Below, one piece after another: positions 2,844-61,339 of a DNA stretch of 64,000 bases. The DNA is from Trypanosoma brucei (taxonomy: Eukaryota): NCBI GenBank assembly GCA_000002445.1, contig CM000207.1, forward strand, positions 2,816,001 through 2,880,000, read 5' to 3'. Position 1 is the first letter of the stretch. Every line of letters begins with the position of its first letter. The notes beneath the pieces were generated by a model. It saw only the letters and a program-made list of their open reading frames with translations, was not told where the DNA came from and did no database searches. The position numbers and the translations under genes were made by a program.

Positions 2844-4388
2844 ATGCAACGAATTCTCCTAGCAGCGATGTGTCTGGTTTTCTGGCACAGCAACAACGCG
2901 GAGGGCAACGGACCAGCGATAAAACAAGCGGAATATTTAAAGGTCTGCAAACTAGCACAAAGCTTGAGAAAAATGCCTGGAGCAGCAAAATTCAAATTAG
3001 GACAGCGGCAGAGAGCAGCTAAAGAGATGTCGAAGGCGATTTTAAAACTAAGAGTCGCAGAAGCAGCAACACTCGAGCGCAATGCATCGATCACATATGG
3101 AGCAATGGCAAATGCTATTAGCAACGCGATGCAAGCCCACCTTGACAATGACGATCAGAGCTCTGCAGCAGCCATAGACGCAGCGACGGCAGCGGCGGCT
3201 GCAGCCGGACGCATAGCTGAGATGGCGGAACTTCTAACAAAAGCAGCAAAAGGCGGGAGTAACACGGGCCACTGCATTGCCGCAACTAGCGGCAGCACAA
3301 ACATAGCAAACGATGCAGGCTATACAGACGGCTGCTATATGAATGAATATACAAGCGCAGCAGCAGACTACAACTTTGAAGACGGCGCGCTTACTGCGAC
3401 GGGCTTTAATGACCTAAATGATGCGGACGCTAAGGACAGCACGGCCACGGCTAGATGCATACTAACACAGCGAGGCGCCGTACCAGCAGCAACAGACGTC
3501 TTCCAAAGCGATGGCCCACACGCAGTGGCGGCCGCAACAATAGTAATAAACGCCAACAACGGTAACCCAAGCATCAAACTGGCCAATGCTCAGGACAACA
3601 TAGCGAAGGCGTGGCAGGTAACAGGCGACGGCGACAGCGGTCTAAAGAAACTCTACAAAGAAGCAGTCAAACTGCGACAGATAACGGCTCCACCTAACAC
3701 GGGAACGGCCGACGACATAATAAAAGCAACCGTTGACCCGGCCGAAATAAAAAAATATATAGCAGCGGCGCTGCGAGCAACAAACTCAAAACTAAACAAC
3801 GATAAAGCAGAAACAGAAGCTGAAGCACTTGCAAATAATGTGTTTACAATGGACAGTGCTAAAACGGACAAAGTATTCAATACAATACAAAAAATAAACA
3901 CAGTCAAGGTAGAAGCAGAACAAATCAAGCCTTTACGACTTGAAGCGCTAACAGACGAAGTAGATCTGCTCAACGCACTCAGTTACCACACCGCTACCAA
4001 CAGAAACAAGATGTCAGCAAAAGCACCCGCTTGCCCTGAACAGGATAAAACTGAAGAAGTGTCAGCAGATAAAAAGATCAAAGAATGCAGTGGCAAAAAA
4101 GGAGATGAATGCAAAGGAGAATGCGAACTGGTAGAGGGAATTTGTAAACCGGCAAACAAAGAAGAGGAAGAAAACAAAGAAAAAGATGGGAAAGCAGCTT
4201 CAACTTGTGCAGGAAAAAAACAAGGGGAATGCGAGAAAGAAAATGGTTGCAAATGGGATGGAAAAGAATGCAAAGATTCCTCTATACTAGTAAACAAGAA
4301 ATTCGCCCTCAGCATGGTTTATGCTGCATTTGTGGCCTTTCTGTTTTACAACTTTAAAACTTACAGGAGTTTTTGTTTAGTTTTGTGA
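2844..4388 (+). CDS. VSG: Variant surface glycoprotein, apparently intact (514 aa). Signal peptide MQRILLAAMCLVFWHSNNAEG, C-terminal domain with CKWDGKECKDSSILVNKKFALSMVYAAFVAFLF, then a 13-aa extension (YNFKTYRSFCLVL).
   Basis: Single uninterrupted ORF with an N-terminal signal peptide and an Ala-rich N-domain. Cys spacing CSGKKGDECKGECE…CAGKKQGECEKENGCKWDGKEC matches the KDSS-type GPI signal. The 70-bp repeat lies 1.6 kb upstream and the 16-mer lies downstream. Confidence 0.85.
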   Translation: MQRILLAAMCLVFWHSNNAEGNGPAIKQAEYLKVCKLAQSLRKMPGAAKFKLGQRQRAAKEMSKAILKLRVAEAATLERNASITYGAMANAISNAMQAHLDNDDQSSAAAIDAATAAAAAAGRIAEMAELLTKAAKGGSNTGHCIAATSGSTNIANDAGYTDGCYMNEYTSAAADYNFEDGALTATGFNDLNDADAKDSTATARCILTQRGAVPAATDVFQSDGPHAVAAATIVINANNGNPSIKLANAQDNIAKAWQVTGDGDSGLKKLYKEAVKLRQITAPPNTGTADDIIKATVDPAEIKKYIAAALRATNSKLNNDKAETEAEALANNVFTMDSAKTDKVFNTIQKINTVKVEAEQIKPLRLEALTDEVDLLNALSYHTATNRNKMSAKAPACPEQDKTEEVSADKKIKECSGKKGDECKGECELVEGICKPANKEEEENKEKDGKAASTCAGKKQGECEKENGCKWDGKECKDSSILVNKKFALSMVYAAFVAFLFYNFKTYRSFCLVL

Positions 4389-8424: not shown

Positions 8425-8595
8425 TATCATAATAACAATAACAATAATAATAATAATGATAATAATAATAGAAGAGTGTTGTGAGTGTGTGTATATACGA
8501 ATATTATAATAAGAACAGTAATAATAATAATAATAGTAATAATGATGGGAGAGTGTTGTGAGTGTGTGCATACGAAAATAATATGAAGATTGGTG
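8425..8595 (+). repeat. 70-bp repeats, 2 tandem copies
   Basis: Two units: …ataataatagaagagtgttgtgagtgtgtgtatatacgaatattataataagaac… and …aatgatgggagagtgttgtgagtgtgtgcatacgaaaataatatgaag…. Confidence 0.9.
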
Positions 8596-9854
8596 GTACG
8601 AAACGACCAGTAACCCAGACCAAAGGAAAACGTAGACAGTAACAAGGGTCCAATGGTATTTAGAGGCGTGGTGGCTGTGAAAGGTATCCTAGCAGCGCTA
8701 TGACTTGGCAGTGTGGCAAACTGAGAGTTTTACAATGGCGATATCAAATGGTAGAGAGAATGAGTATAGGGGTTGCTGAGTGGTAAATTTTCTCAAGCTG
8801 TGCAGTCACCTTTGAAAGCAGCTTCAGCCGCCAACATGCATCCAGAAAGAGAGGAAAAAACAGCAAAAGAGTGCTATTGTATCACAAGGTAGTGTAGGGA
8901 CTGCGACGCATAGTATACCCTACACATAGACGGGTTAAAAAAGTTATGAGACTGAACGAATGTTTCTGCGGTTTCTATAATACTGCACGCAAAGGTGTGG
9001 AAAGACAATTTAAATGTAAATTTTAGTACGCGGTGGCCAAAGAGACTTAAAAGAGTATATTACAGTCTACGTTCGTGCGTAGGACCTTGCAAAACTGAGT
9101 ATTTCTCTTATTAATTTTAACCTTCTTACAGCTTTCTGTTTTGTAAAATATAGAAAGAGACAAAAATAGTAAAGAGGAAAAAAAGAAACAAAAGCATTTA
9201 TATATCACATCCTGCGAAAATAAATAACAAAGAAGTGCAAGGGATTGCCAGCAGACGTTAGCGTAACGGTTAGCTAGGTACTAAGAGCGTGAAGAAAGAT
9301 CCACGTCAACTATCGCCCATTTCAGCGGTTAGAGCGGAGCCAAAAACAAGGAACTTTTGATAAAAATACAGGACAAGCAACAGCCAAGAGGTGGATACAG
9401 CAGGCAGAAATAAGAAAGTACAGGCAAAAGTGTGCTTATCGTAGCAACCCACAAAAATTGACGAGACTATTATAACGATATTTGTTTATGAAACTATGAT
9501 GTAACAAAGAAGCGGTAAGAAACGATTTAGAAGGCAATGGCTGACAAGAAATGTAGCACAAAAACTCTAAAACTACTTTAACTAGCACAGCTTGTATAAT
9601 AAAGAAGCCAAGACGACATATTTTAGGAACAAACAAGTCGGGAAAGAAAATCAAGGGGGGTGTTCGGTAATTTTTCGCGCTCTGATGCCTTACAATTTTA
9701 TAAATGGCACTTCTTTTTCCCATCCCGTTCACATCCTTAAACTCAACCTAACAAAGCAAACCGGCCTGTCACATAGGCACAAAAATTGGAAACTTAACGG
9801 AACAGGGACGGCAATTCGTAGCCAAAAGTACCAAGCGGCATATCAGCCAAGCCG

Positions 9855-11390
9855 TTGGCAGCAGAAACAATGCTACAGCCGCAACAGCAACACTGGAGGT
9901 CCACACTAATAGTGCATGCGCTCATTCTTTTAATTGCAATCTGTGGTAGCGCGAAGAGCGCTTCTGACCCCAGCAAGGTCTCAACCTTTTGCACAGAAAC
10001 ATGGTACGTCAATAAGCTGATAAAGAATCTGAGGACTACAATGGAAGACTCACATCAGCTCGTGCCGTCGAAAAGGCCAGTCAAAATGTCAAACTGTTTC
10101 AGCTTGCGGCGAACAGACACGCCGATGACAAAAAGGGAAATGGGTACGCGGCGCTAGCGGTGATAGCGGAAGTTGACAATCAAAAAGTAGCGCAACAAGC
10201 GGTACTTTTTGAACAGGCACATTTCGATGCGCTTCATAAGCTAGCGCACAGAGCAGGGGCGGCTGCGCTAAGCATTGCAATTTCAACCACGACAAAAGCA
10301 CAAATAACCGGCAAGGGCACAGTCGAAGAAATCGGGGGGAAGACAATACTAGCAGAAACGGAACCCAAGCACTGCAAAGTCACACAGGAGATAACTCTAG
10401 CAACAAAGCTAAACTGCTAAGAACAAAAAACGAACCAGGTGGACGCAACAAAAGAGGCGGACAAAACCGCCACATGGGACAAAATATTATTGCGGCAACG
10501 ATCCGAGTTAACGAAGATAGCGGTCGACACCCGGATATTAGTGAAAGGCGCAGGAGCGGACATAGGGGGAAACCCAGGGGCACTAAGCAACGAGCCAGGC
10601 TGCAGCGATAACTCGGGACATACAACAATAGCTGCGGCCATAAACGCCGTAGTAGCAAGCGTCAAGAGCTTTGCGGCCACATTCAAAGCAACGCCAATAA
10701 ACTTACCAGCAACAGGAGAAGGAAGGGAGGCACCACAGGCGCCCAATGATGGAGGCGACGAAATCGAGCTACTAGTTCCAGACGAAGAGTTAGAAAAAGC
10801 CTTGAAAACAGCGTTTAAGCAACCCATACCCGTTGCAACCGACATTTCAACCCTAAAAACTACACAAGTGCTCAGCAACCCCGCTGTACAAGCGTTTGCT
10901 AAAGCATTAGCCGCCAAAAATAAGGGTAAAGCAACTGCTTCTTTATCCGACGAAGATGACGCAGCAGTTGTGTTTGGAGGCAAAAAGGTTGACATTCAAA
11001 CGACGCACATCAAGCATCTGGAATATGACGAGATTACCATCAGTAGTGAACCTGAAATTAAAGGCACCACTAAGAAATTAAGCGAAAACAACTTTGCCGA
11101 TGCAATGGGTTATTTCAATAGCCAAAACATGAAAAAACATACAGCCAATACAGCAGAAACAAAGCCTGAAGTAGGGGGAGAAAAAGCAAATACAGCAGAC
11201 AAAGCCGAAGAAAAGAAAGACGAGGATAATAAAGGAACCGCAGCTGATTGTAAAGCCACTGAGGAGGGTAAATGTGTCAAAGAGAAATGCACTTGTAATA
11301 AAGAAAAGAAAGGTGCAAAGACAAGGAGGGAGATGCTATTATTTCCGCTGTGATTAAGGTCTCTCTTTTGCTGGCAGTTTTGCTTATAGG
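9855..11390 (+). pseudogene. VSG: VSG pseudogene. Signal peptide …LIVHALILLIAICGSAKS, B-type N-domain (TWDKILL, HFDALHKLAH). The C-terminus is degenerate, with the tail frameshifted.
   Basis: ORFs 9855..10157, 10160..10420 and 10439..11353 are separated by a frameshift and an in-frame stop. The Cys/Lys-rich C-terminal region is followed by an out-of-frame hydrophobic tail and a 16-mer. Confidence 0.8.
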
Positions 11391-11466
11391 ATGAGAAGTT
11401 TAAGGATTTTAGACCAATTTTTTTAGATTTGTGAAACTCATAATTTTTTTCTATTTTGAGAGAATT

Positions 11467-11482
11467 TGATATATTTAACACT
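11467..11482 (+). promoter_or_regulatory. VSG 3'UTR 16-mer (TGATATATTTAACAC)
   Basis: Consensus match about 100 nt after the degenerate VSG C-terminus. Confidence 0.65.
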
Positions 11483-11659
11483 TTTTGTCAACCATTTGCG
11501 AAATGAAAATTTTTTGAGGATTTAGTAAAATGTGCATGACAGTGTCCTATGGGAGTAAGTTAATAGCACGATAGGGTATGGCAAGTAAGTTTCATTGTGA
11601 AACTTCATTAATTGATTTTTTTTGTCTATTTTATGGATACTAATAGTTAGGGTTGTGAT

Positions 11660-11720
11660 GGCCATATTAAGAATGACAGGAGAGTGTTGTGGGTGTGTAT
11701 ATACGAATATTATAATGACA
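11660..11720 (+). repeat. 70-bp repeat (1 copy) with no cognate downstream VSG
   Basis: Sequence gaatgacaggagagtgttgtgggtgtgtatatacgaatattataatgacag. The next 1.1 kb has no VSG-like coding sequence and then runs into the ingi. Confidence 0.8.
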
Positions 11721-13663
11721 GTTGTGCGGAACGAAATTTGAAGATGACGTGAAGCACTTAAAACAATGGCGCGGCTGCAGTGGCAGTAAATGAGTAATTA
11801 AGAGTGAATGTACGAGAGAAAAAAGTTACGTTATAACAGATAATGAACTCTTGGAAACAGCTTATGTGCAGTATCCAGCGGATATCCAAAGAATAGTATC
11901 ATTATTATACGGAAAAAGCAGAAGATATAAAGTATAAGTACACGGGGGCCATTGAACGGGACAACTGTAATTACTTCGTTACTCGATGAAAAAGAAGTAT
12001 CAGAATCTGGTTACCAAGGCATAGATAAAACAGGCGCTAAAAGAATAAGGGAGCGCATATATTAAGCGATGGAGGAACTTAATAAAGTGGAGAAGAACGA
12101 TGATAATACCCCCCCCCATTTACGTATTGGTATACTTTTCAGACACAAAGGCATTTTTAAAAAAAGGATATCCATATAAAAGTGTTTGATGATGCGCAAC
12201 TAACGAAGCTCATTAACAGAGATAAATCAGATAGGAAGGTACATGTGGATCCCATGATACCAGATATAAAGCGCTATATGTTTAAAAACGACAGAAATGC
12301 AGAAGAAACAAACAGATGTGTAGACTATTCCTTGAAAAACAGAGACACTAGTTGTTTATTTCTTCAGCAAGTAATAGAGATTTGCCGTCAGGTGGAAGAA
12401 AAAATGAACATAAGATTAGAATTTTATGGCGTAGATATGTGTGTTGTATTTGGAATATATTGAGAAGTGAATTAGATGTATAACTTAGATACAAAAACCA
12501 ACAGGAATACAATGACACGAATAAGAGATAAAACCCATAATCTTCGGCTAAACGAACTGTTTTGACAAACTTCCCATACCGGATGAGCCAATAGAAATCG
12601 ACATAAAAACGGGATTTATAAAGTAACATAGACTCATATAGTCGAAACAAGAGCAGAACGTAAAAACTTCTGAGTCCAATTGAAGCATATTAGAACAAAG
12701 AAGAGTCTTTCACAAGAACATACTAAGGATATAGTTAATAGAAGTGGTGTGGATATGAAAAATCCCCATGAAGCTGTAAGAGCCGAAGCCAACTACATAC
12801 AGCAAGTAGCCGTAACAGAGGTGAGCAGCCACAAGCATGCGTAACAATAGATATAAAATTTTCTGCCCAGAAAAAAAAGACTAAGAATTATTTTTTTTAT
12901 ATTTTCTTCGTGCCTTCGTGAGAGTTTCCCCCCACTGGCGCGGCCATCAGCCATCACCGTAGAGCCCTGAAATGCTATCGGTCTGGCGACTGTGGCAGAG
13001 TCTCCATTTTTTTTTCAGCCTAACACACTCTCTATAATTTTTGTTGTAGCTCCGCAGTTGAACGGAATACAGCAGATGGGGCGAGAAGCCACCCAACCCG
13101 GACTCTCCCAAAGATGTCAATTAGCAATCCTTTTGTTTTGATTTTTGTTATTCGTTTATTATTCTCTCCCCTCTTTCTGTTTCTGTTGCTTGTTGATTGC
13201 ATACCCCCTCTGTCTCTGAGGGTGTCTGGACTATTCCTGCGTCCGGTGCTTTTCCTGCTAGCTCCACACTCGGCAATAAGGGGGGAAGTTGCAGAATGGA
13301 GAGTGGGTTGTATGACTGATACATTAGGGGAGGACTTCACCTGCGGCCGGCTTCGTTCAACCGCAATGAGAAACTGCGCCAGCCTTTTAGAGAAACATAT
13401 ATCCTGCACACATACACACCTTCCACCGCAAACCTAACACGTAACTCCTTCAAATCGGGACAGTTCATCAGGTGCAGCGCCGTTTCTTCGCAGTCGCCGC
13501 GTTGGCTGGTAACAGCGCGCTCTACCTTCATATTGTGCATCTTATTTTGATGTAAGGTGAGGCCAGTTCTGCTAGCACACTGCCTTCAGCATGTCGATCA
13601 CACCAACATGGATGTGTTTGTATGTGGGGAATCAGTGACACACAATTTTGTGCTTTTGCTGCA

Positions 13664-14458
13664 TTAAAGCTCGACTCTCTCACCTTTATGGAAAGCCTTA
13701 CAGTGTCGGATGGGAGAGTCCCTGCAACTGAGCACTTTTTGGCACACACCACACTGCTCCTCGCCTTTCCCCGGGACGTCAACGTTTCCTTCACGGGCAC
13801 GCTTACGAGGGAATTGCACCACCACCACGGTACCGTCCTCCGTCACTATGCTCTTATGTTTGAATTTCTTGTGTAGTGACCGGGAAGAGCGTGTACCGAA
13901 GCTCGCCTCACACAGGTCACATTGAAACGGCAGCTTCCGTGTATCCTGAGAGGCTGGCGCTGCTGGAGCGCTACCATCTCTTTGCAATGAGTCCTCGTTC
14001 TCCCGCCCCCTTTTCACGCGGCAACTACCGCTGCCTATGCCATGTATTGTTCTAAGGTGGTGTAATAGTCGGCCTGGCACTGCGAATTTGGAGGCACAGA
14101 GGGTACAATGAAGCACCTGCGGTCTCATCGAGACTCGTGTGCTCGATGGTAGAGGAACGATCGCCACCACTGGAGGGGGCTCCGGGGAGATGTCCACTGC
14201 AGGTGTTGCATCGCCGTATTTGATCCTCCGGAAGGCATAAGCTCGCACAAAGCCATGTTTGTTTACCCTGTGCGTTACAGCACTCGAGTGGGATTGGTAT
14301 TTGGCATCACATTCCGTACATTTGGTCGGTTCGGAGGTTCTCTGAAGAGTGCGTGTCGCAACAGTTGGGGCTGTTTGTATTGTTGGCCCTATCGCTGCAT
14401 GTTGTGGGTTGCACCATCGGCACTGTGGAGGCACACTCGGGTTGATCTTTCGCAACAT
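13664..14458 (-). pseudogene. ingi C-terminal C2H2 zinc-finger segment (264 aa ORF)
   Basis: Repeated CxxC…HxxxH units (CTECDAKYQSHSSAVTHRVNKHG, CTLCASKFAVPGRLLHHLRTIHG, CDLCEASFGTRSSRSLHKKFKH, CGVCQKVLSCRDSPIRHCKAFH). Confidence 0.75.
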
Positions 14459-14520
14459 CCATCCATAGTGTCTTGAAGACCCAACCCGAAAGCGTGCCAG
14501 TGCCGTTTCTTCTTCCCTCG

Positions 14521-16866
14521 TCAGTTCTTCCTTATGTTTTGTTGGAAAGTGGTTGCCGTGATACCAAACCTATGAGTGTTATCATGGACTTCTTCCGACC
14601 TAAGCACTCGCTTCGCATAAGCAATGATGTCGGGGATCCATGTATCTCGCAACTGTGGTAAATCTGCGGACTTTTTGGCCATTTCATCACAAACCTCATT
14701 CCGTTTCACGCCACAATGGCCAAACACAAATTGCAGTTGGATACGCACCTTCCTTCTCTGAACTTGAAGCAGAAGCCTCCATAGTCGTCTTATAATTGGG
14801 TCAGTTACGGCTAGGGGGCCTGTCTGCAGTGCTGTTAACATTGACAGCGAGTCAGAGAAGATGGACAACCTGCTCGGTGTGCTTCTGTATGCCGGAAGCC
14901 ATTTCAGCAGCCGTTGCAGTCCTATCTCTAATGCTACGCATTCCGCTCTGTAACTGCATGAGAGTTCCCCTGCTCCGGTCTTGGGTGCACAAATCAGCGT
15001 GTTTTTTCTATAGAGCAGGGCAGCTGCCCCGGACTTCTCACCGAGGGACACGGATCCATCAGTACACAATTCGTAGTGCTCTCGCCGCGGTGGCTCCTTC
15101 CCCCTCCGTGCAAAATGCCGTTCAATCCACTTTTCGGAAACCTCCCTTTTGACATCGTCAGGGTCATCAGCGCACACAGGCTTTATCTGCGTGTGAAATA
15201 TCGGTCGGCAGCTGTGGCGGAGCGTCGCTGTCTCTAGTGGGTGCTCGCGTGGCTCAATGCGGAGGTGGGGATAAGACCGCATGATGCGGGAATGTAAGAC
15301 TCTGACTGGATGTTTGCTGTGGTATACTTCCTCATCACTGCGCCGCAAACATCCGCCTCGTGACTCACACATCAGCATGAATTTTATGCTGTGCACAAGA
15401 GTGGCCGTCTTGAGTGGCAGGAGGTTTGCTTCCAGCAGAGAGTTCTCTTTGCGCGTCCCATGCGGTATGCCGGCTATGATGCGACTGGCTTTGTGTTGTG
15501 CTGCTGCAAGGAGGTCTAGACTTCGTTTTGAAGCGTCCCAGTACCATACCTCAATGCCATACATGGTGTGTGCCTGTACGAGTGCTAGATAAAAAGCTCT
15601 CAGTACTTGTCGTCTTGGCCTCCATGTAGAAGCTGAGATGGATGCTATCTGCAGTAGTCTCAAGTCCATCTTGCGTCTCGTTTCGGCCGCATGTGTTGCC
15701 ATCCCTTGCAGACACTGGAATGTTACTCCTAGAAGCTTCGGTGTCCTGTCAGCTCCTATTCTTTCGCCGTCTAGTTGTAATGTAAGGGGATGGCGCTCTA
15801 TACACCCGAAGAGTGTGCACTTTGTTTTCGCTATATTGACAGACATGAAGTACTCTTGTGACCACTGTAACACCACGTTGAGGCCGCATTGTAGTGTGTG
15901 GTTGATGGCATCCCTCTCTGTGTGTCTCGCAAGTAGCGTTAGGTCGTTTGCAAAGAATCCGTGCTGCAGTAACGGCACTTCTGCAAGGCGCTGGCTCAAC
16001 GAGTTCATGACAATAATGAACATGATTGGGCCAAGGACAGTTCCTTTTGACACTCCTCGCTCAAATGTTCTGCTTCTGGAAAGCCTCTCCTTGAATCTCA
16101 CTCTGCCAGTTCGGTTACTCAGAAATGATACGCACCACTTCACAATGTGGGGTGATACCTTCATTCTGTGCATTTTCCTCGCAATTTTGTCGTGATCTAC
16201 TGTATCGAATGCCTTCTCGTAGTCAACGAATACAGCACCTGTACGATATTGGTGCGTGGGACGGCAGAGGGCAGCGCGGACGTGCAGCAGTTGTTCGAGC
16301 GTTGAGCATCCGGGGCGAAAGCCTGATTGCTGCGGCGTCAGCTGGGACTCAACAGTGTCTCTAAGCCTCGCGGCAATTATGCGCTCCATGACTTTGCAGA
16401 GACAGCTTGTGAGCGTCACAGGCCTGTAAGAATCGAGGTCCTCCGCCTTTTTTCCGGCCTTCAGGATGGGGATGATAACACCAATCTTCCATGCAGGCAG
16501 CACGACTCCCGTTCGTAGGCTCTCATTGAATAGCCTCAGCACAACATTCAGCGCTGTTCTACCGAGATGTTGCAGTGCCTCGTTGTATAGGCAATCAGGT
16601 CCTGCTGCGGATCCACTCGGAAGTAGTTTGATCGATCTCCGTAGTTCAGCCATCGTGATGGGACTGAACTCACTCGCTATCGTCTTTATTGGTGCCGGTG
16701 GGTGTGAGTCGGGTTGCCTTCTTGCGCGGGACGAGTACAGTTTACTGAACCTCTCAGCTTGACGGTAGTCCGTGATGGCCGCGTTATCAACAAGTACAGC
16801 CAGTGTGGTTAGTGGTCGTGGCGCATATACCTTCTTGACAATGTGCCAACTGCAGCGGTCTGACAC
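14521..16866 (-). pseudogene. ingi reverse transcriptase / RNase H segment (781 aa ORF), separated from the other ORF pieces by frameshifts and stops
   Basis: RT motifs present (…FVDYEKAFDTV…, …GVSKGTVLGPIMFIIVM…, …FFANDLTLLA…). RNase H-like …CTDGSVSLGEKSGAAALLY…. Confidence 0.85.
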
Positions 16867-17490
16867 CGCAAGTCTGGAGCATAGTGTGCTTCACCTCTTT
16901 TTTGTGGTACGGTCCAGGATCTGCTTACGCGTGGCTACCAACATTTCCCTTCGGTGGGAGGATCCGCATCCAGCGATCTCTTCATCGAGTTTCGCGAGCT
17001 CAGGTGTCCAATGTGGTGGCGTTGCTCTGCAGCTACGGGGGACGGAGACCTTCGTCGCAATGCGGATGGCGGAGCTCAATTTCTGTTCCAGGGTGTTGAC
17101 ATTCTTCTCTCTACCAATTTTCCTGCAGAGCTCGTCAACCTTGAGATGGAAATTCCTTCAGTTAGCTTTTAGCCATGCGTACATGGGCTTTCGAGGCCGC
17201 GTGCAACTCAGTGCATCTGTGTCGTCTCCAACGATAACGTCGAAAAATATGTGATGGTGATCGCTATCTGGAGAATACAGCGATATCCACGTGTACACTG
17301 TGCAATTCCTTGACAGTGTCACATCAGGGGTGGACTCCCCGTGGTGGCGCGCGTACCTGGTGCACTGACCAGTGTTGCAGACCAGAAACTGGTTGTCAAT
17401 GCACCACTGTGTGAGGGTTTCACCCTTGGTATTTGGTGGGCTCGCGCGATCCCATGCCAACGAGTGTGCGTTAGCATCTGCACCGATGAG

Positions 17491-17916
17491 CTAAGCACTG
17501 TCAGTTGTCAGAAGCGTATCTAGGTCAGTTGCCGTGAAGGTGTGTTTTGGTGGGATGTATGCCGACGTGACAGTCAGCGCCTTTCCACGTGCAAGGTGAA
17601 TTGTTGCATGCACTTGTTCAATGCGACCAATAACGGCCATACAGGTCTCGACTGGTAGGTCTTTCCTCACTAGTATTGATACACCACCTCCTCTGCAGTT
17701 ACGAGCTATTCCGTTATGTTGGTAGCCAGCAACGCTAAAGCAAGCCGCCTCTCCAGGCGTCATTCTTGTCTCACTCAACAGACAAAAGGCGATCCGCTCA
17801 TCAACAAGGGTTTTGTGGAGTGCTAATCTCTTTCCTTGAGATAGCCCGGCGCAGTTCCACTGCATCCCGCGCAACGACGGGCCGGGATTCTCTTCCATGT
17901 CACCGAACAGCAGCAT
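17491..17916 (-). pseudogene. ingi ORF fragment: N-terminal 2A-like peptide (DMEENPGP) followed by an AP-endonuclease-like region
   Basis: Sequence MLLFGDMEENPGPSLRGMQWNCAGL….ILVRKDLPVE… is an N-terminal endonuclease domain of the L1Tc/ingi clade. The D-x-E-x-NPGP motif lies at 17878..17901. Confidence 0.75.
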
Positions 17917-18642
17917 CTTAGTGCGGATGATACTGCTGATGGCACGCTGGCACGTGCCCAGGGACCGACAAATGAAGAACGGTGTCCCAGCAAGACGCTG
18001 CTGATCCCTGTGCTGTATGATGCCGTAGCCGGAGCACAGCAGTGTTCCCCATGAAAGGAACGCTGCTGCCTCTTGGCTTCCCCAGATGATACGGGGTACT
18101 GGACCCTGGCACCACGTTGAGGTGGCCGTAATCGCCAGGTGTTTGGCTTGTCTCTGCCTGTTCCGAGAATTAGTTACCTATGGTGGAGGACGAATTTTTA
18201 GGTGAATTAAGAAAAACCATACCAGCTGTATTTTTTGTGCCAGATTGCCGTGTATCCATGATAGAGTCATGAGTCGAAACTATGAACTTTTCAAAGAATA
18301 TATGAGAGCATATAAACAGTGCGGCGGTTAGTTGCCTTCCACTCCAAATCCTTATTTGCGTCAGTTTCAAAGACTGTATTTCCCCTGTGTATACTCGACT
18401 GTTCCTCTATATCATTTCATCTCCATCATATCCTTGTGTACGATTGTGCACACAATCATAACGTTAGTGTTTGAACCTGGAAAACTTCTATACTCTATCT
18501 TTCTTCTCCTTTTTCCATTTTATTTAGCAATATTCCACATCATCACTTCAAATCCATTATGCATACGATTACTCTCGTTGCACACATACCATTGTCTTAA
18601 CTGCATTTTTTGTGTTTTTCATTCATTTTTATAGTTACTACT

Positions 18643-18750
18643 CTTATTATAATATTCGTATATACACACTCACAAAACTATCCAATAATAATTATTACTG
18701 CTACTATATTACTATTACTATCCTTACTATCACTGTTATAACCGTAACTG
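18643..18750 (-). repeat. 70-bp repeat (antisense orientation on plus strand, about 1.5 copies)
   Basis: Sequence cttattataatattcgtatatacacactcacaaaactatccaataataattattactgctactatattactattac is the reverse complement of the consensus. Confidence 0.85.
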
Positions 18751-18959
18751 ATATACATAAAATATATAAAGAAAATAAAAATATTACTCATTTCCATACT
18801 TTACTACTACACTACGTTATACCTGTATGTTATAGTAATACGCTTCTTTTTAAAACTTTTAATTTTGTGACCTGTTTTCATATTTTTACTAGAAAGCATT
18901 AGAGTTCATCGAATGTTATCAATTTTAGCAAACTATCTCAAAATAGAGAATTTCATAAC

Positions 18960-20290
18960 ATTCTTAAAATTGGGCAAGTTTTCTTTTAAGTTTTATGCTA
19001 TAATCAAAAAAGCAAGCAAAAATAGGGGCCTTGTTAATGACAACAGAATTGCTTCCTGTGGTGTTTGTGGCTTTTCTATCATCTTCTGATTTCATTCCTT
19101 CTTAAAGTTTGCACTTTTCACCTTTGTGCTCGCAATCTTTGTCTGCTGTACATTTACTTTCTTCTGTATCTTCCTTGCATTTTTTGATTTCTTCGAATCC
19201 ACTGCTTTTGTTTGTTGAGCCGCCGCTATCTGCGCGCGATCGGCTAGCAATATGCTTATTGCATTTAGTGCCTTGCCTTCGGTGCTGACGTCCCCAATAT
19301 CCACAGCTTGCACCTCTCCCCCTTTATAAATTTTAACCTTGTGGCCTGGTTTTAGAGTAGTGAATTTTGCGTTAAAGGCGTCGTTGTCTTTTCCATATGC
19401 GTCTTTTAAAAATTTAGTTAGTTGTTTGCTCTTCCTCTGAAAGTTTTGCCTTCCTCTGCACCCCTGTAGGTGGGTGCTGGCGGCTTGGACGACCAGCATT
19501 TCCGCAGCTAGTGCTTCCACGTTTAATGTCATTTTCTGGAATGTTGCTGGTTATGTTCGCAAGGCGTTACAGATAACTTTTGTGGCGTATTCTGCTGGCT
19601 TTCCTTCCTCTGTTGCATCGTTGTGCGTTGGGTTGCAGTCACGGACACTGTCTTGGTTCCTGTAAATTTGTAGTTTTTTGATCGGCTCAGTTCTCGGGGT
19701 CGCTTGTATTCCCGTCTGAATTATGGTTGGCGACAGAGTTGTTATTGTATCTTGTACGCAGTTAGCTGCAGCGTCTGCCCAGGTGCCGTAGCTTTGCGGA
19801 CTTTGGTTGCATCTTCCGCTCATGGCCAGTTGTATGACAGTCCAGCGGTTCCTTTTGTCTTTTTACTGCTGTCTGCTACGCGTAAACTTAGCAGCTTGCT
19901 TGGCTGCGTGTCTAGACTGATAATTTTGCTCTCGCCTGCTCATTGTGCGCGGTGCACCCTATTGCTGGTCAATCTTTCCTTGCTTTGCGAGACTTGTCAA
20001 AACCGTTATCAGCGCCAGTTCTTTAAGATACTATGTCAGGTGCGCTGCTGTGTTCGCTGCCTCGGTTGCAGGCTGTGTCACTTGTGCTTTTGACTTCTCC
20101 TCGTCGGCTGCCCCGACGATAGTACACAGAAATCCAAATATCTTTTTTTTTCTCCCTTGGCTGAGCACGCTGCTTTGCACCCCATTTGCAGCAGGGATAT
20201 TGCCAGTGTTGCCGCTACTATGAGCATTGGTTGCTTTACTCGTTTGGTGCCGTTCCGCGGCACCAACGTATTTAGCTGCTGCCTCTTCAT
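18960..20290 (-). pseudogene. VSG: VSG pseudogene (short and degenerate). The C-terminal domain KCKEDTEESKCTADKDCEHKGEKCKL and the tail …TNTTGSNSVVINKAPIFACFF… are in shifted frames.
   Basis: ORFs 20078..20290, 19551..19823 and 19092..19532 are VSG-like but fall in different frames. The conserved 3' end ccttgttaatgacaacagaattgcttcctgtggtgtttg is shared with other VSGs in the window. Confidence 0.65.
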
Positions 20291-22169
20291 TAAGCCGCTA
20301 GTGGTTGTGGCTTCTAGCGTTGTCCTGTTGTGGTGTTGGTGAACAGAAAATGTGGACCCTGTTTGAGTCGTTAACTAGAGTGCTCGTCGCAGATAGTGCC
20401 GGCATCGATCCCCGCGGACGGCAAGTATTTAGCTTACACCAAGGATGGATCTGCCTCAACGTGGCGCTATGGTCTAGTACCAGAAGAGAAATAGGCTGGG
20501 AAGCCAAATGTTCCATCCAAACGGCGGCCGCAACACCAGATATGGTGCGACCGCTCCGTGGGGAGAGAACCATTACTTAGTGTTCCACCACGGTTCAGCA
20601 CCCTGATCAGGTGGGGGAACGAAAATCCCTGATACAACCTCTGTCCGAGGAGGCAGATAGATATGGTAAACATGGTTCAGACGCAACGTGTCGGGGATCA
20701 AATGGGCGTCAAATGGAAGACCGTACCCCTTGACACGCACACATGCGGTCGCCCACATGTTGGTGTCAATTCTCAAAAAAAAACAGGGTCTTTTAGTGTG
20801 TAGGAATGACAATCTCCAGTGTGGAGTCTCACACTACCACGTTCTAGTGGCGTGGTGTGCGTAAATGCATTTCCTTTTTACCCTCTGGTGGACTGGCTGC
20901 GTGGTCCTGACGGTTGCACGAGGGAAAAAAAAAATTTTTACTGCCGCTTTTTCTTTTTGTTTTAGGTTTGTTGTTAATTCTCTAATTTCGGAAATTATTG
21001 CTTCCTTTCTTGGATGCCGCCTCTTATGTGTTGCGTTTGACTTGTTTTTTTCTAGATAGAGGTCTGCTTTGGGTTTCAACTTAATAAGCTTATTAATGTT
21101 GCCGGTCCGGTCGGTCAGTAGTTTGACTGCGCGTGCTGGCGCTTTTACTGGAGCTTCGAATAACTTCGCTAGTGCGGTCATTTTCCCTTGAGAGGCGTCC
21201 ACCATCGTCTGCACAAACCGGCGGGATAACATTGATTTCCAGTATACTGATCACGAGTATTATGCAGTGTGCCTTCATAGTCTGCTGTGTTGCTTTAGGT
21301 AAACTATAGATAGTTACTGAAAGAGCCTAAGTTCCTCTGCTTTCTGTTTGTTTTAAAGCTCGCCGATTTCTTGGTTGTTCTGGTGGTCAAGAGTGGCTAT
21401 GAGGGCGAAAACTTTTATGTTTAACACCTGTATGTAGTTGGAAACCCGAAGCCTGATGCCAGCTACGCAAACCACATGTTGTTGGTTTTTTTTGAAATCT
21501 TCCGATTATTTATTTGGGGTTACGGTTGGCTAGAATTCTGAGTGCATGCCGTTTATCCTGCGCTGCTACGCAGAAAAAATTAGAACTCTTTGTAGAATTC
21601 AAAACCGTCTTTACTATCTTCAATAAAATTCCCTCTGCATCATGGTTATACTCCTTCAAAAGTGAAAGCACAAAAACGCCCTATAAAGAATCAGTTAACT
21701 TTTGTCAAACAGCACGTTAGTTTTAGCTTTAAAATTAAAAGGTGGAGCCGCTACCATAACCACTGCTATAGGGTCTACCCCTTTTTGAGTAAAAACGGGG
21801 TATCATCGGCTGAAGATGTATTATTTTTCACTTTTCTGATGTGTATATCGTTTTTTACTCTATGTTTCCTTATTTTCTTCTTTTTCTGCTTCCATCACTC
21901 CGGACAACATACAAAGTTCGTTTGGCCAACATAATGCACTCTGTCCCTCCATCATTGACATTCTCCATCACCTTGTGTATAATAATGACCATATTCGTGT
22001 TAGTGCTTAAAAAATTTAGCATGCTCTATTTCCGTTTCTCTTTTTGTTTTTCTACTTTTCCTTTAATTATATTCCTCCTACTTTCCCACCCAACTCACTC
22101 ACTTACATTGCACACTCGCTATTTTTAAGTCTTTCTGTATTACCTGGACGGAGTTTCTTCACTACTATT

Positions 22170-22250
22170 GCTCTTATTATAATATACATAATTATATACT
22201 ATTCCATTTATATCGTTTTATCCGCTGCTTCGATTACCATTATTATAAAA
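22170..22250 (-). repeat. Degenerate 70-bp repeat remnant
   Basis: Sequence ctcttattataatatacataattatatactattcc… has partial similarity to the reverse-complemented consensus. It is preceded by the cccacccaactcactcacttac motif seen next to other repeats. Confidence 0.4.
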
Positions 22251-22499
22251 AGCCCAAATACTATCCATTATATATACAAAATAAACTAAATTAGAATGGC
22301 ACTCATTTTTCATACTTCATCACTATACTGCTTTGTAACAATTGTATACCATCACGTACGTTTTAGCAAATTTTGAAACTTTCAAATTTTTACATTTTCA
22401 ATGTAAAGTGCCAAAATATGTTAAATATCAGCAAACGTTTTCAACAAAATTAATAAAATTGAGCAAAAATCTTCTTAAATGTAAAATGATACCAAAATC

Positions 22500-24030
22500 A
22501 TCAAAGCAGCATCCGTACTCATAGAAAATTTCTTATTGAGGAGAAAACAGCCATTTCTGTACTTTTCTCTTTCTTTGTAATCTCCACCCTCTTTTCCCTT
22601 CCTCCATGCACAATTTTTCTCGTCTCCTGTTTTGTCTTTTTCACAAGCGGTCTTATCATTTCCGTGTCTTGCACATCCAGCTGGAGCTGCTCCCTCTTTT
22701 TCTGTCTCTCCTGTTCCTGCTGCTGTGGTTTCTGTTCCTGGTTTAGGCTTGCATTCCTTTTTAGTTTTTTCATATTCGCAAGAATCTGTTGGGCAATGGG
22801 TTTCATTGTTGTTAAAACTTTCACAGACTATCTCCTTTCTGGCGGTGGCCGTTGTCGATTGTACTGGTATTGTTTATGCTGCTGCTTGTCCTTTAGTGTT
22901 TTACTCGTATTCTGCTGCTTTTTAAGCGCTGCCAACTGTTCCTTTAGTCGTATCCGCTTTTGTTTATCTGCTTCGTACAGTTTGTAGGCGCCTGCCGCTT
23001 CTTTTAACTTTTTGATCCATGGCACTTTGTTTAGTCCTCCGTCCGGTCCACTGAAATAGGTGTGGTAGTCAACACAGTTGGCGTCGCTGTCAGTGGAGCT
23101 TACAGAGGTTTCTTTTCCGAGGACGGTTTTTCTATTGAACGGGTCCTGCTGTGCCATTGGTGCGCCTATTTGGGCGATGGCGGCGGATATTTTAGAGTCT
23201 AATTGTTGAACTGGTGCTTTCTCGGGGCATGTGCCGGCAGTCCCTTCTATTCTGTCGTTGGTGCTGTCGCCTTTGGCATATGTGTTGGCGTTCCTTGCTC
23301 CGCAGGCGTTGTCTGTGCCGTCCGCGCAAACACATACTAGGTCATTGCCGATACTCTTGCCGTTTTCTGCGATCGCACAGTCGGTTGCCTTGGTTATTGC
23401 GGTTGCCACCTTTTTGCATGTCTTTGTGGATGCCTCAAATTTGTATTTTGTTTCGGCTCCACACATAGCCTCCTGTAGCGCCGAATTGATTTTTTCTATT
23501 AATCTACGCCGTCCTTTGTAGGAGGTGCTTTTAGCTGTTCATTGATCTGCTGGGAGATGTGAGGTGTTGGATTTATTGCCCGTGCCGCACGCGCCCTCTC
23601 CTCTTTTGATATTGGCCGAGGATTTTCCTTTGCCCAGTTGTTGTCTTTCGCACCTGGTTTTGTGTGTTGTCGCTGTCTTTGCCATTCTTTACATTTTACT
23701 GTCCAATCAAAGTGCTTTTTCTGAGCATCTAGCGTTACCTTCATTTTATCCCACGTTCCTGCTTGTGCTGCAGTGCCAAGCAAGGCGTGTCATTTGTCGT
23801 CTGCTGCACTCATATTATAGTATAGTATATCTATGTAGTCTGTTTCGTCCGGCGGCGTCGTGAAAGCCGAAATGCTGCCGCTCTTGGCTATCTGCCAGAC
23901 GTTGCACAATGCCAGGAAAACATTCTGTGCGTCGCCTGCCGTTCCATGTGCACGCTGTAGCGACTTCGCTGCGATAAGCAATAATATTAATTAAATTCTG
24001 CTTTTTCCCATGTTCAGTGTTGTTAAACAC
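22500..24030 (-). pseudogene. VSG: VSG pseudogene (B-type: …NCVDYHTYFSGPDGG…, …GTWDKM…). C-terminal Cys-rich domain and KDSS-like tail are frameshifted and there is an in-frame stop near the N-terminus.
   Basis: ORFs 23790..23981, 23499..23783, 22828..23466 and 22519..22824 are consecutive VSG segments separated by stops and frameshifts. Confidence 0.75.
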
Positions 24031-24405
24031 TACCTTTCCCTTTCTGATTGTGCTGTTGTTTTATTATTTAACTACCAATAATTGATATGATTGGCTAGAA
24101 AGCCTTTTGAAAATTATAGTCATTGAATCTTGTGCTGTTTTAGGTACGAAATTTGTCGTCTAATCATCATTCGGTGGTTGGACGCGTCTGCATCTGCTTT
24201 TTGGTGGTTGTGAAGCCGTCCCAGCTTGGCGGAGTGGGGTGGTGTGCTTTTATCTTTCTGTGTTTCGTTGAAGTACTTCATTGGCTCTTGTTTGGAGGTA
24301 ATTTGGTAGTGGTGTCGAGGAACCGGAAGATAGATCTTCAAGCTTCTTAGCTATAAACAAATCCCCTTCTTTAAATGTACCATCACAATCAGCCCATAAT
24401 ATATA

Positions 24406-26668
24406 TCACACTTCTCTCCGTCTATTGCATAACTTAAAATTTCCCCCCAGATCATTCAAATTGAAATCCCTTCTTTCTCCCTTCTTGAAGCAAGTAAGGT
24501 TGGATACGATCTTTTTAGAATTTGCCTCCCAGGTTAACTCATGTCCTAGAAAGTGAAGAAACGCAGGTTTTCTGAGCGAAGTTTCGTAAGGAACTGAGAA
24601 AAACTGCTCTTTATAATCCAGACCTATCAGCCCTCCTTGCAAAACGAATCTACTGCTGACATTCTCTTCACGTTCCACACTTCACAACAACAAGGGAATA
24701 TAAATGCTTTTTTGGACCACCATTCGTCAGCCACTGCAAGAACTTTATCGAAGGCGGCTTTAAACCTCTTAAATGCCCGAACTCGTGCTATTAAATTACC
24801 GCTCCAGAGGTATGGCTTCCCTGTGTCGTGAAATTTTAGTAGAGGCGGTAGGACTTTCTCTTCTTCTGTCTTGCTTGTCATCTCAAAAAACCACCGACAA
24901 CGTTCTTTATGTTCTTTGTGATCAGAATAAACTATCAAGTGCAAGCGAGGTTCATAATACTCAGCTGTCGTCATGAATAGAATCGGAGAAATTTGTTTGT
25001 CTTTAACGACACCCTCCTCACTAAATTTATCTTCATTATCATCAGTATTTTGTATAAAATATTTACTGCACTCTCATACTTCTCTTTCCATCAGAAACAA
25101 TAACATAAGATCCGTCAACAGTCATTACAATATTATCATCACTTACATTCTGTCTTTCCAAAAACTCCATAACCCATATAAGCCTTTTTACATGACTATA
25201 CAAACCTCCCATAGCAATTGTAATAATTTCAACATGGCTTAGTTTGGCACTCAATATGAGCCTACACCATTCTTGAGTAACATGAGTTTCAACGACAACG
25301 ACAAACACTCTGAGTTTTCCGTTTAGTCTTTGGAGTTTATGTGTTAGAAGAACTACTAGTAATGTTGAAATGGCGGTAGTATCCTTGGTGATCCTTTTAG
25401 AGGCGGATAAATAAATTCGGAAGGAATGTTGGCGTAGTCAAAGCTGGTACGTCGATAGTTGCATCGTTTTTACGCAGATATCAGTGGCTGATTGTCCATC
25501 TGTTTTTATAAATTTCTCTTTCTTTCTCTCTCTCTCTTATTTTACATTAAGAACGTCCGCGTTAGCATCGAAACTCTGCCCAGCGTCCGTCAATTTTTGT
25601 AAGCTTTTCGGTTGGACGCTTAACTATAGAATTATATTTGTAGCGGCTTTTGAGGTGCTTATGGTCTTCTTCCCTAATCTGATGCAAAACAATAGTTTGT
25701 TCGCTCGTTAAATTAGTTTTGTCTGTAGTGTCTTTCTTCGCATGCATTACATGACGACAATCTTGCATATCCACTGTTAATAAACATTTAAAATATAATT
25801 TTTCCTTATAACTTCTCCAACAATAATATCTTCATTGAGAGCACTAAAATCAATATATGTTGCGAAATTCCTGAATTTAATTTCTGACGTTACTAATTGT
25901 TTCAGAGGTTTATAATCAACAACTTCCCTGACAATATCCCTAGATAGTGTCGATGCATAACCAATGGTGGAAACGTAATTTTATCACTAAAATCTTTAGG
26001 ATAACCAAGAGCTCTCCCCATATTCAACTTCTCTCGTGGAAGTATTTCAAAGTATTGCAGATACAATGGCACCCTCATAAATATATCGTCATTTGCTTTC
26101 ATTATATAGGGATTAGACGGTTTAAATATTTCAACTGCGAATTTGAACCACAAATATGTTTTTCTACTCACAGTGAGTTCTGCTTCCCGTCCCCAATTAC
26201 CAGCATCTCCAATTTTTTATTTGTTGTTGGATTGACATCACATAAAGGTAAAATAATAACATCCTGATTTACATAACCCTCTTTTCCAATAACCTCTCTG
26301 AGTTAAAAATTACTATTTGTATGAGGGGAATGAGCATATACTATAAGCAACTTCCCAGTAAAATTATTTGACTTACGTGCCAATTCATGGTAACTCTAAC
26401 AAGTTTCCCTCTGTAGATTCCTTCTTCTAAATCTCTCATCATTATCTATAGAAGGTATTCCGGCCACAACTAAATAGTCTTCACTTTCCCAAAACTTCCT
26501 CACATCATTCAAGACAAATCTCATACACTCATCTTTAAAAATATCTAGTGAAATAGGATCTCTTTCAAATTTCCTAAACAAGCTGTATAGCGAAACAAAT
26601 AAATTAATCCCCATAATAATAAAAGGTAAACAACTCATTGTTGCAGATATCCTTCTGATATACTTCAT
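24406..26668 (-). pseudogene. Glycosyltransferase pseudogene (trypanosomatid UDP-Gal/UDP-GlcNAc-dependent GT family, beta-1,3-GT-like). N-terminal TM anchor, …IPSIDNDERFRRRNLQRETC… and a DDIF motif, fragmented into at least five ORFs.
   Basis: ORF 26396..26668 shows a signal-anchor MSCLPFIIMGINLFVSLYSLF plus a Galactosyl_T-like block. ORFs 25902..26171, 25063..25308 and 24627..24974 continue in other frames. Confidence 0.6.
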
Positions 26669-27524
26669 AAGATACTTTTACCATACTAATTAAATGTTTT
26701 AATACCTTATACAATCTTAGAAACCATTAAGGAAAGAATTCAGTTGGCACACTACGGTTTTTAGTGTAGCCGTGCTTACATATGTAAACAGTTTCTCGAT
26801 ATTTTTATGATGCTGTTTTTGAAGGATGTCCGTCCAGTGTCTGCAACTTATATTCGGGCGTATACCTGTAGTTTCTGCTAAAGAAGTTCGCTTTAGTGAT
26901 ATATGCTGCCTTACACTATGTGATTACCATTGTACTCACATTATTCAATTTGCATTGTGTAAATTTCTGTTCTGCTAGCAGGCGTTTGGTGCGCCAACAC
27001 ATTTAGAAATTCTAGTAACTTAACTATTTTTCTGTGATATGTAGTCCAATCATCTGAATCATTATGATACTATCATCACCATACTTTTATGAATTACTGC
27101 TACTCTTGTTTCTATCACTATCTATGCTATAGAATCTAGTATTATTTGAGTAAAATATGGAGCACGATTTCTGTTGATGCACTATATTCGTCTGACACGC
27201 GCTCCTGCGTCTCCCATTACTTTACTATCTGCTTTATCTCCTTGTTTTTTTCTGCTGCTTCTACCACAGCAATTGATGTAATAATTTGATATGGCCATAC
27301 ACTTTGCTGTGCCTCTACATGATAATCCCCTCCACCCTTCGTATATGATAATTCCCATCATCATTCTTATATCTGAAACTATGCATGTTCCATTTCCTTT
27401 TTTCTCTGTGGGTTTGTCGTTCTGAAGCTCTTTTCACAACATTCATCCTTCTCTCCCGTTGCCATGGCCCCCTTGCTATTGTATTAGCTAATTCTTTTTT
27501 GACAGGGTATTTACTTCTCACTAT

Positions 27525-27595: not shown

Positions 27596-27868
27596 GACAC
27601 CTTAATAATATGCATTAAACATATAAATTAAACAAAAAATTAAATTTTATCACTTTATCACTATGTTAATTTACAACCATAGGCCACTATCATACACTTT
27701 CAATTTTTAAATTTCTAAAAAGTTTTGCAATTTTCAACAATTCGCACATTTTCATAATAAAGTGCTGAAGTATAAAAAACACTAGTAGGTTTTTAAAATT
27801 CTCTCAAAAAAAGAAAGGTTTCACACAGTTTTTATCCCATAGGCAAAAATGCAAGCAAAAGAGGAGCC

Positions 27869-29233
27869 TTGTTAATGACAAATGAATTGCTTCCTGTGGT
27901 GTTTGCAGTTTTAAATTCATTCTCCGCTTTCACTCCGTCTTCCCAACCTTTAGCTTTGCACTCTCCTTTTTCATCAGTGCCCTTCTATTTGCACCCGCCA
28001 CTGCAGTTCTTTTTCTCCTTACCTTTACATGCCGATGCTGTTTCAATTTGTGGTTTGCATTCAGAGGTACTAGCACTGATCCTCTCGTTTTGCTTTATCG
28101 CAGCTGAAGCCTCTATGAATGCTTCAATCTGCTGCAAATAATTCAGTGTTGAGATACTGTCTAGTTTGCTGTTTGAAGGTCTGCCAGAGTTGGCCTTTGT
28201 TAGGGGCGTTGCCTTCACTCCTTTCCGTATTGGTTCTCCATACGTGCTTGGGTCCTTGCCATAGCTTCTTTCAACCATGTTTTTAATATTGTTCCGTTCT
28301 TGTTGCGGTATCTCCGTCATTGTGTCGTCCCCTTTGGCAATTTTGTAGACTCAGAGGATAAAGTTATCGTCACTTAGTTTGTTATACGGTTCGCAGCTGT
28401 CGGTTGCTGTTGTGTATGTCTTCGGCGCATCTGAGAGTTCGGTGTCGAGTTGGGCTGCTTGATCCGCGATGTTGTCCGAATGGAACACCCATTCCTTTGG
28501 TGTCGCGGTTGGTTTCACCTTTCCTGATGCTTGCTTAGTCGCGTCGGTAGTCGAGTACAGCGTGCCTGACGAAATCCCGGCCCTATTGCCGTTGCTGCTA
28601 CTGCTGCATTGGCCGTTGTATGTTTCGTATACCATTGCTTGAGTTGCAGCTTGAGCTGCTGCTGTGGTGTCAGGCTTGACTACTTCAAGACTAAGTTGCC
28701 AGGTGGTGAGCGCCTTCTCTGCGCCTTGTGGCGATTCGCCGTTTATGTAAGAGTGAATTGTGCATTTGCCTGTGCGTATGCCGGACTCTGTGCCGTCCAC
28801 CTCAATCCTCTTCCTGGCCGCCGACTCTGTGTTCGTTGTGAACGCGTTTGAGTCCGCTTTTGTTTTCAATTTCGCTACCTTATTTAGTGCTGCAGAGTTT
28901 CCCGCCATATGAGCCAGTGCCGCCGCCTTAGAAGCCAGACCGATCACCGTTTGTAATGCTCGGTCGTCATCAGCTTGCACCTTAGGTGTAAGTCGGACAG
29001 AGCTTGAAGAAAGACAGCTTTTTTGCTGTCAGTGGTTAGTAATGCGGCTATTTTTAGTTGTTTTGATTTTTTTACGGTTAACGCTTGGCAGTATTGCCGC
29101 TATCTTGAGTTACTTGACGAGCTCTCCGATGTAGACTTCGTTGTGGTCTTCGATGGAGCAGTTGGGGTTTGGCTCGGCTGCCGCCATGCTTAAGAGTGGC
29201 AAGGCTATAAGAAAAGCTTTGTACATTGTCGAA
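27869..29233 (-). pseudogene. VSG: VSG pseudogene (A-type). Signal peptide MYKAFLIALPLLSMAAAEP, two in-frame stops in the N-terminal 50 codons, and the tail …TNTTGSNSFVINKAPLLLAFL out of frame.
   Basis: ORFs 28351..28980 and 27985..28320 plus the translated upstream region show an N-terminal signal followed by stops. The conserved 3' end matches other VSGs. Confidence 0.8.
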
Positions 29234-32803: not shown

Positions 32804-32830
32804 TTTCTCTCTCTCTCTCTCTCTCTGCTT
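32804..32830. repeat. (CT)n microsatellite
   Basis: Sequence tctctctctctctctctctctctctc. Confidence 0.9.
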
Positions 32831-33457
32831 TTCCTGTTCACAGTAATTCATTAGTAGTCCTTATTTTAAATTTCTTACAAATAATAACATATTGGCGCAC
32901 AATAGTGCTAGAAATTATAACTAATTCTGATAAAGAAAAGAGTTTGACATTATTTCGTACTTACTCAATCCTTTCTAATATTTATGCTTTTTCTTCTTAT
33001 TGCTTACAGCTTGATATTAGAAGCCGAAAACAGATTTAAAAATACAGTCTCAACCATCATCTGCACAGAACCTTATATCCAGACCTTAGTGAAATGCTGA
33101 GTATCATCAGCAACTTCTCTTGATGCGTCATTATATTATGCAAGGTTATGATGCGTACCCAGTTGTTTAATTCCATATTTTCTCTCTTTTTTGGCCATTT
33201 ATTGTGCTTTTTAAAAATTCCATAGCAATTTCATATGCATTTTACACTGCATATGTCTCTCCCTTATTGTTTCTTCAGAATATTCTCGTGTATGATGATA
33301 CCCATCTTATGTTTCTTGAAACTGTGCGTATTCAATTTAGTTTTTTTTCTGTTCATATCTCATACACTCCTTCAAGCACAATAATTTAATTACATTGCAC
33401 CATTGACGTATATTTCAGAGCCTTAGCTCTCATATTCATTTAGTCTTCACCAAACGT

Positions 33458-61265: not shown

Positions 61266-61339
61266 CATATCATAATTATCATAACATTGAGCAAAAATGC
61301 TTTGTGTTTTGAAATACTAAAAGCTTCCAAAATGATAAA

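Follow-up and report, generated by a model that had tools for sequence, protein, structure and literature searches.

The stretch of Trypanosoma brucei DNA analysed here, 64,000 nucleotides of contig CM000207.1 (hereafter the window), lies in a silent array of genes for the variant surface glycoprotein (VSG). Plus-strand VSG cassettes on the left meet minus-strand cassettes on the right, and a full-length but inactivated ingi retroposon sits at the meeting point. We argue that this convergent junction is probably a recombination scar, in which an ingi inserted normally in an intact plus-strand cassette and its 5' side was later exchanged by recombination between ingi copies. The left flank of the ingi goes back to a cassette whose T. 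equiperdum copy runs on into a VSG, and the right flank is unrelated to that continuation. On this reading the locus is a structural scar in the silent array with no evident function of its own. Most likely it exemplifies the rearrangement of subtelomeric arrays by retroelements, a process already known, rather than a new element or mechanism.

The ingi element and its insertion site

The ingi lies on the minus strand, with its 5' end at position 18139 (CCTGGCGATTACGG...) and an A8 tail at 12891-12898. Pfam places Exo_endo_phos at 17494-17916 and 17161-17460 (Exo_endo_phos_2 was also matched), and RVT_1 (3e-40) and RNase_H (2e-9) within 14521-16863, giving the domain order APE endonuclease, reverse transcriptase and RNase H. 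Three or more in-frame stops, together with one or more frameshifts, interrupt the open reading frame (ORF), and these disruptions are distributed along the element without clustering at one point. The conserved 79-bp signature of the 5' end would lie in the first 79 nt (18061-18139); beyond the opening bases a match to it is presumed from the RIME sequence. The start of the element, CCTGGCGATTACGGCC, shares CCTGGC with positions 2-7 of L1Tc, as taken from a published primer (PMC1874656). The total length, 5,249 bp, agrees with the 5.25 kb published for ingi (PMC2323293), and no further ingi or RIME was found in the window.

The unoccupied insertion site was recovered in T. equiperdum. Contig CZPT02000045.1 carries TEOVI_000483400, a protein 96% identical to the 304-amino-acid (aa) piece of the innermost plus-strand VSG pseudogene at 10439-11353; named VSGs of T. 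brucei and T. evansi share 42-52% identity with the same piece. The contig aligns with window 8517-11312 at 89% identity, and its positions 14949-16381 align with window 11451-12878 at 91%. Local alignment prolongs the homology to window 12890, the base abutting the A-tail of the ingi. Since the homology runs through 12860-12890 and stops there, the left boundary of the ingi is placed at 12891. An earlier reading, made from the letters of the window and hereafter the sequence-only reading, had called a full-length but broken ingi at 12860-18140. Its length class, its broken state and its 5' end stand, and its left end was 31 bp off.

There is no ingi in the contig, in which all six 70-bp repeats are on the plus strand, and the region 14881-18213 is gap-free. 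Past the point occupied by the ingi in the window, the contig runs on for 219 bp and enters an intact 490-aa VSG at 16616-18088 (VSG_B E=2e-50 and Trypan_glycop_C E=3e-21 in Pfam), to which nothing in the window is similar. Because the contig runs through the site into an intact VSG, the left flank is the upstream region of a once-complete plus-strand cassette. The ~1.1 kb to the left of the ingi, described earlier as non-VSG sequence, gave no VSG match, and by this homology it is in fact a real cassette upstream region (co-transposed region, CTR). Judged from these alignments, the contig keeps the state before the arrival of the ingi. Across window 11451-12890 (contig 14949-16397) the identity declines steadily toward the ingi, being 98% immediately upstream of the 70-bp repeat and ~83% beside the ingi, which could reflect a gene-conversion tract begun at the repeat.

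Tbingi makes a 12-bp target-site duplication, and elements of the ingi4 subclade insert at the signature AxxxxxxxTxxxGTxGGxTxxx^xTxTxxTxxxxx (PMC3820030). The 3' target copy in the window, TAATTCTTAGTC in ingi orientation, aligns to TAATTTTCAGTA in the contig (16385-16396). In the sole register set by the 3' junction, the T. equiperdum site reads ATCTTTTCATTTGTGGGGCAGT followed by TAATTTTCAGTA and agrees with the signature at 7 of 10 informative positions; a score of at least 7/10 has a background of 0.006 per position in the window or the contig. By this score the ingi integrated normally at its 3' junction. At the exact termini no 12-bp duplication was found, although the sequence-only reading had pointed to one of roughly that length as a feature to look for: the 5' 12-mer ACAAGCCAAACA agrees with the 3' copy TAATTCTTAGTC at 3/12 positions. 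Mutational decay is ruled out as the cause, since the adjoining flank is still ~85% (about 83-87%) identical to the contig. Nor was the upstream half of the target, GTGGGGCAGT in the contig, found in the 5' flank of the window. The ingi4 signature would thus appear to suit the original insertion and not the current 5' flank. A candidate for an offset duplication, TAATTCTCGGAA, agrees at 8/12 positions and is found 21 bp upstream of the 5' end of the ingi; it was rejected, since 110 positions hold four matches of this quality and the sequence farther out is unrelated to the contig.

These junctions bear on a history of simple insertion, in which two sub-arrays, each ending in a VSG-less cassette, lay tail to tail before the ingi inserted at their meeting point, an insertion that the sequence-only reading had proposed first. 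Non-coding parts of VSG arrays are documented sites of ingi insertion (PMC3553974), and this copy is old enough to have accumulated mutations. However, decay does not explain the disagreement of the flanking 12-mers beside so well preserved a flank, and the upstream target half is missing from the 5' flank. Moreover, the homology with the contig stops at the ingi and the contig continues uninterrupted into an intact VSG, so an old junction would have had to coincide with the exact insertion base. We regard this history as close to refuted.

The orientation switch and the missing VSGs

Pfam matches to Trypan_glycop, VSG_B and Trypan_glycop_C in ORFs across the window, together with the T. equiperdum, T. 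brucei and T. evansi identities of the 10439-11353 ORF, identify the window as a silent VSG array from the T. brucei group. Searched over the whole window with up to three mismatches, a 24-nt core taken from the 70-bp repeat occurs 12 times, on the plus strand at 1213, 4618, 8487 and 11693 and on the minus strand at 18646, 27532, 37253, 40816, 43979, 47652, 61159 and 61234; shuffled sequence, used as a control, gave 0 matches. An nhmmer profile made from these copies found 16 repeats, five on the plus strand (1168, 4579, 8446, 8522 and 11653) and 11 on the minus strand (18636 to 61224). The strands are split at the ingi without exception, the last plus copy being at 11653-11726 and the first minus copy at 18636-18708. 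VSG-like coding similarity, from Pfam and tblastn, splits likewise: it is on the plus strand up to 8196 and in the pseudogene at 9855-11353, and on the minus strand from 19006 on. The two innermost repeats are oriented toward each other, and neither Pfam nor the tblastn panel described below detected VSG coding sequence between either repeat and the ingi. Both the division of the cassettes by strand at the ingi and the facing innermost repeats without a cognate VSG had been read from the window earlier, and the 16 repeats and the VSG similarities bear them out.

Remnants of the missing VSGs, which the sequence-only reading had marked as worth seeking in both flanks, were not found there. A six-frame Pfam search of the two flanks gave no match, a weak negative since neighbouring true VSG pseudogenes were also missed; a tblastn panel of 15 VSGs, whose controls were detected, gave noise only; and flank ORFs of at least 45 aa, joined as one composite protein query, had no relatives. 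At the DNA level, 11727-12890 and 18140-18635 show no similarity to the rest of the window, CTRs of the other cassettes included, and the right flank is similar to nothing in the window or the T. equiperdum contig. The earlier label of CTR-like for 18140-18635 is a tentative one, drawn from position and base composition, and the comparisons turned up no sequence similar to it. Where cassettes of the window and the contig are intact, the start codon is 1.1-1.9 kb from the 70-bp repeat, whereas the ingi begins 1,164 bp past the left repeat and 496 bp past the right one. At these distances coding remnants in the flanks are not expected. It is the colinearity with the contig and these distances, rather than the Pfam negatives, that bear the weight of the conclusion that VSGs are missing.

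The caution about Pfam comes from the two innermost pseudogenes (9855-11353 and 19006-20600), both of which the Pfam VSG models miss, frame-wise translation included. Both were recovered by direct comparison with VSG proteins. The tblastn panel covers 10055-11329 of the plus-strand pseudogene, and in the minus-strand one, which has many frameshifts, a VSG of the window (41146-42459) matches 19314-19006 (E=1e-4) and T. evansi VSG P0006 matches 19000-19092 (E=5e-6). Pfam alone under-calls degenerate VSGs.

Origin of the junction

The element is complete, one of its junctions is canonical and the flank at the other appears to come from elsewhere, a combination typical of an exchange within the ingi. 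Recombination inside the element would leave both of its ends complete, as is observed. The 3' junction and the interrupted ORF show that the ingi first integrated, by endonuclease-dependent target-primed reverse transcription, antisense in the upstream region of an intact plus-strand cassette, ~1.16 kb past the 70-bp repeat and ~220 bp short of the VSG start codon, and that it decayed by stop codons and frameshifts. Homologous recombination on its 5.25 kb with a second ingi, situated in another cassette 0.5 kb downstream of its 70-bp repeat, may then have replaced everything 5' of the ingi and produced a hybrid full-length element with non-matching flanks. The end state would be two facing 70-bp repeats without VSGs, and a plus-strand sub-array abutting a minus-strand one.

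The partner could have been inverted on the same chromosome, which would give an inversion of at least 45 kb, or it could have been on another subtelomere, where a translocation or a break-induced copy would give the same local picture. An inversion predicts, in the rightward direction, the upstream region of the partner cassette, its 70-bp repeat and then, from the preceding cassette, the 3' untranslated region (UTR) and the VSG, each of these being inverted, and 18140-20600 shows this order; the other breakpoint, carrying the missing VSG, would lie beyond the 64 kb. A palindromic duplication was rejected as the source of the facing arrays. The minus-strand array is not an inverted copy of the plus-strand array, and only 70-bp repeats and 3' UTR motifs cross-match.

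Ingi and RHS elements are reported at the borders of VSG arrays. Subtelomeric VSG arrays are documented to contain ingi elements (PMC3553974), rearrangements brought about by recombination of ingi and RIME are reported (PMC2854126), and subtelomeres are highly heterozygous (PMC6784898). The sequence-only reading had offered an ingi-mediated recombination or inversion as its second proposal, and it is the better of the two, as it fits a canonical 3' junction with an unrelated 5' flank. Its further claim that the VSGs were lost holds only for the left cassette, and there as an absence from the window; under an inversion that VSG would be displaced rather than lost.

Several points weigh against an exchange between two ingi copies. 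Neither a second ingi nor a reciprocal junction lies within the 64-kb window, and the source of the right flank was found neither in the window nor in the T. equiperdum contig. The 34 bases upstream of the ingi 5' end score 2/10 on the ingi4 signature with no recognisable duplication, and a canonical second insertion should leave at least a weak signature at the 5' flank. The contig comes from another taxon, is 83-98% identical, and has an extra cassette beside a gap of 10 N. Rather than a proven orthologue it is a paralogue or a diverged allele, which does not affect its use as a copy of the unoccupied site. Finally, an assembly misjoin through a 5-kb repeat would look identical.

The poor 5' signature also bears on an insertion-coupled rearrangement, in which reverse transcription was primed at the left site and the 5' end of the new copy was joined to distant or inverted broken DNA, so that the junction was made and the VSG removed or displaced in one event. 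A canonical 3' junction, a 5' join without duplication and a signature score of 2/10 are as expected if the 5' join was not at a nicked target, and the full length of the ingi is compatible with it. Such outcomes are known for mammalian L1, but no report was found for ingi. A coincident break in another cassette would also be needed, and that a full-length copy should stop within one base of its first nucleotide just where an unrelated break lay is less likely than an exchange in 5 kb of homology. We consider an insertion-coupled origin unlikely. That the array inversion or junction was the work of the retrotransposition event itself, its 5' end captured by a break in another, oppositely oriented cassette, seems to us quite improbable; if true, the ingi would be an active architect of the VSG archive and not a passive homology patch.

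It is also conceivable that two unrelated subtelomeric contigs were joined in assembly via a collapsed ingi, and that the parasite itself has no such convergent junction. A complete repeat that has no duplication and whose flanks do not match is the exact product of a misjoin through a 5.25-kb multi-copy element, and an exact-match look-up of six ORFs of the window found 0/6 on record elsewhere. Yet the window has no runs of N, there is no sequence discontinuity inside the ingi, and its frame disruptions are spread and unclustered. Genuine strand switches at retroelements are, moreover, to be expected in such arrays. An artefact of this kind appears to us a rather improbable account of the junction, and we retain the ingi-ingi exchange as the probable one.

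Features of the region and related systems

The features around the junction are collected in the table below. The flanking genes are mostly VSG pseudogenes, with a few full-length ORFs. The minus-strand orphan repeat, read directly from the sequence, has a TAA/TGA-rich part beyond its 18636-18708 core, to ~18750. An Rfam scan of 11000-19500 gave one sub-threshold chance match and nothing else.

Table. Features at and beside the convergent junction (window coordinates)
Feature	Coordinates	Strand	Basis
Innermost plus-strand VSG pseudogene, frameshifted; last complete cassette of the plus sub-array	9855..11353	+	ORF pieces, T. equiperdum identity, tblastn
Orphan 70-bp repeat of the plus sub-array, facing right	11653..11726	+	nhmmer E=1.5e-17; exact 24-nt core at 11693-11716
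Left flank: VSG cassette upstream (co-transposed) region, cut before the VSG	11727..12878	+	colinear with T. equiperdum contig 15226-16384
12-nt target-site copy adjoining the ingi poly(A), TAATTCTTAGTC in ingi orientation	12879..12890	-	aligns to T. equiperdum contig 16385-16396
Full-length inactivated ingi non-LTR (long terminal repeat) retroposon	12891..18139	-	length, domains, A8 tail, end of homology with the contig
Right flank, 496 bp; presumed truncated upstream region of a minus-strand cassette	18140..18635	-	position; T-rich plus-strand composition
Orphan 70-bp repeat of the minus sub-array, facing left; core 18636-18708	18636..18750	-	nhmmer E=1.1e-14; exact 24-nt core at 18646-18669
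Innermost minus-strand VSG pseudogene; C-terminal domain and glycosylphosphatidylinositol (GPI)-signal end (19006-19314) confirmed, N-terminal extent approximate	19006..20600	-	tblastn

Paired adjacent copies of the 70-bp repeat occur in two cassettes (8446-8579 and 61149-61293), and all others have a single copy. The 8.8 kb at 18709-27521 has no nhmmer repeat and holds two minus-strand VSG pseudogenes (~19006-20600 and ~22478-24060); a degenerate minus-strand copy is visible by eye at ~22170-22260, beyond the 16 found by nhmmer. In the ~5.9 kb at 27597-33469 no 70-bp repeat was detected, and two GC-rich, ORF-bearing blocks (~28.0-29.0 and ~30.5-32.0 kb) may be two VSG fragments in one cassette, or a fused cassette. 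A composite query of pieces of the right-hand VSG pseudogene, made in search of a contig syntenic with the right flank, had no match at E<=1e-8 among the matches listed.

The T. equiperdum contig has four 10-N gaps (3069-3078, 11253-11262, 14871-14880 and 18214-18223), all of them intercassette and close to 70-bp repeats or 3' UTRs. Its extra cassette (~11263-14870), which has no counterpart in the window, is flanked by two of these gaps and may be a scaffolding choice rather than a real difference.

Compared with known systems, the element resembles Tbingi, the ingi4-subclade partner of RIME, in its 5.25 kb, its APE endonuclease, reverse transcriptase and RNase H, its A-tail, its 5' CCTGGCG and the ingi4 endonuclease signature at the unoccupied insertion site. 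It differs in having no 12-bp duplication, no signature in its present 5' flank and a broken ORF. As silent VSG cassettes (70-bp repeat, upstream region, VSG and 3' UTR), both innermost units begin with a good 70-bp repeat, and the upstream region of the left unit is homologous to that of an intact T. equiperdum cassette. Unlike such cassettes, both are without a VSG, and their upstream regions stop after 1.16 kb on the left and 0.50 kb on the right, where intact cassettes have 1.1-1.9 kb to the start codon.

Dispersed retroelements give rise to inversions and translocations by ectopic recombination, as Ty does in yeast and L1 and Alu do in primates. The present locus resembles the ingi/RIME cases (PMC2854126) in its complete element, its flanks apparently from two loci and its lack of a duplication, exactly at the change of orientation. 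It differs from them in that neither the partner element nor a reciprocal product was seen, and its topology may be that of an inversion or of a translocation. Two gene runs that point together also recall the convergent strand-switch regions of trypanosomatid RNA polymerase II, where the transcription of expressed units terminates and which carry base J and H3.V as marks (PMC4721609). Unlike those regions, the junction described here is inside a silent array, and no role in termination is implied.

The locus shows the silent VSG archive in the course of reshuffling. One insertion and one exchange would be enough to strand two recombination-competent 70-bp repeats without genes, and the same exchange would flip the orientation of tens of kilobases of the archive. 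Since the T. equiperdum contig keeps the pre-insertion state, half of the event can be retraced base by base, which is of use in annotating subtelomeres and in dating rearrangements among T. brucei subspecies.

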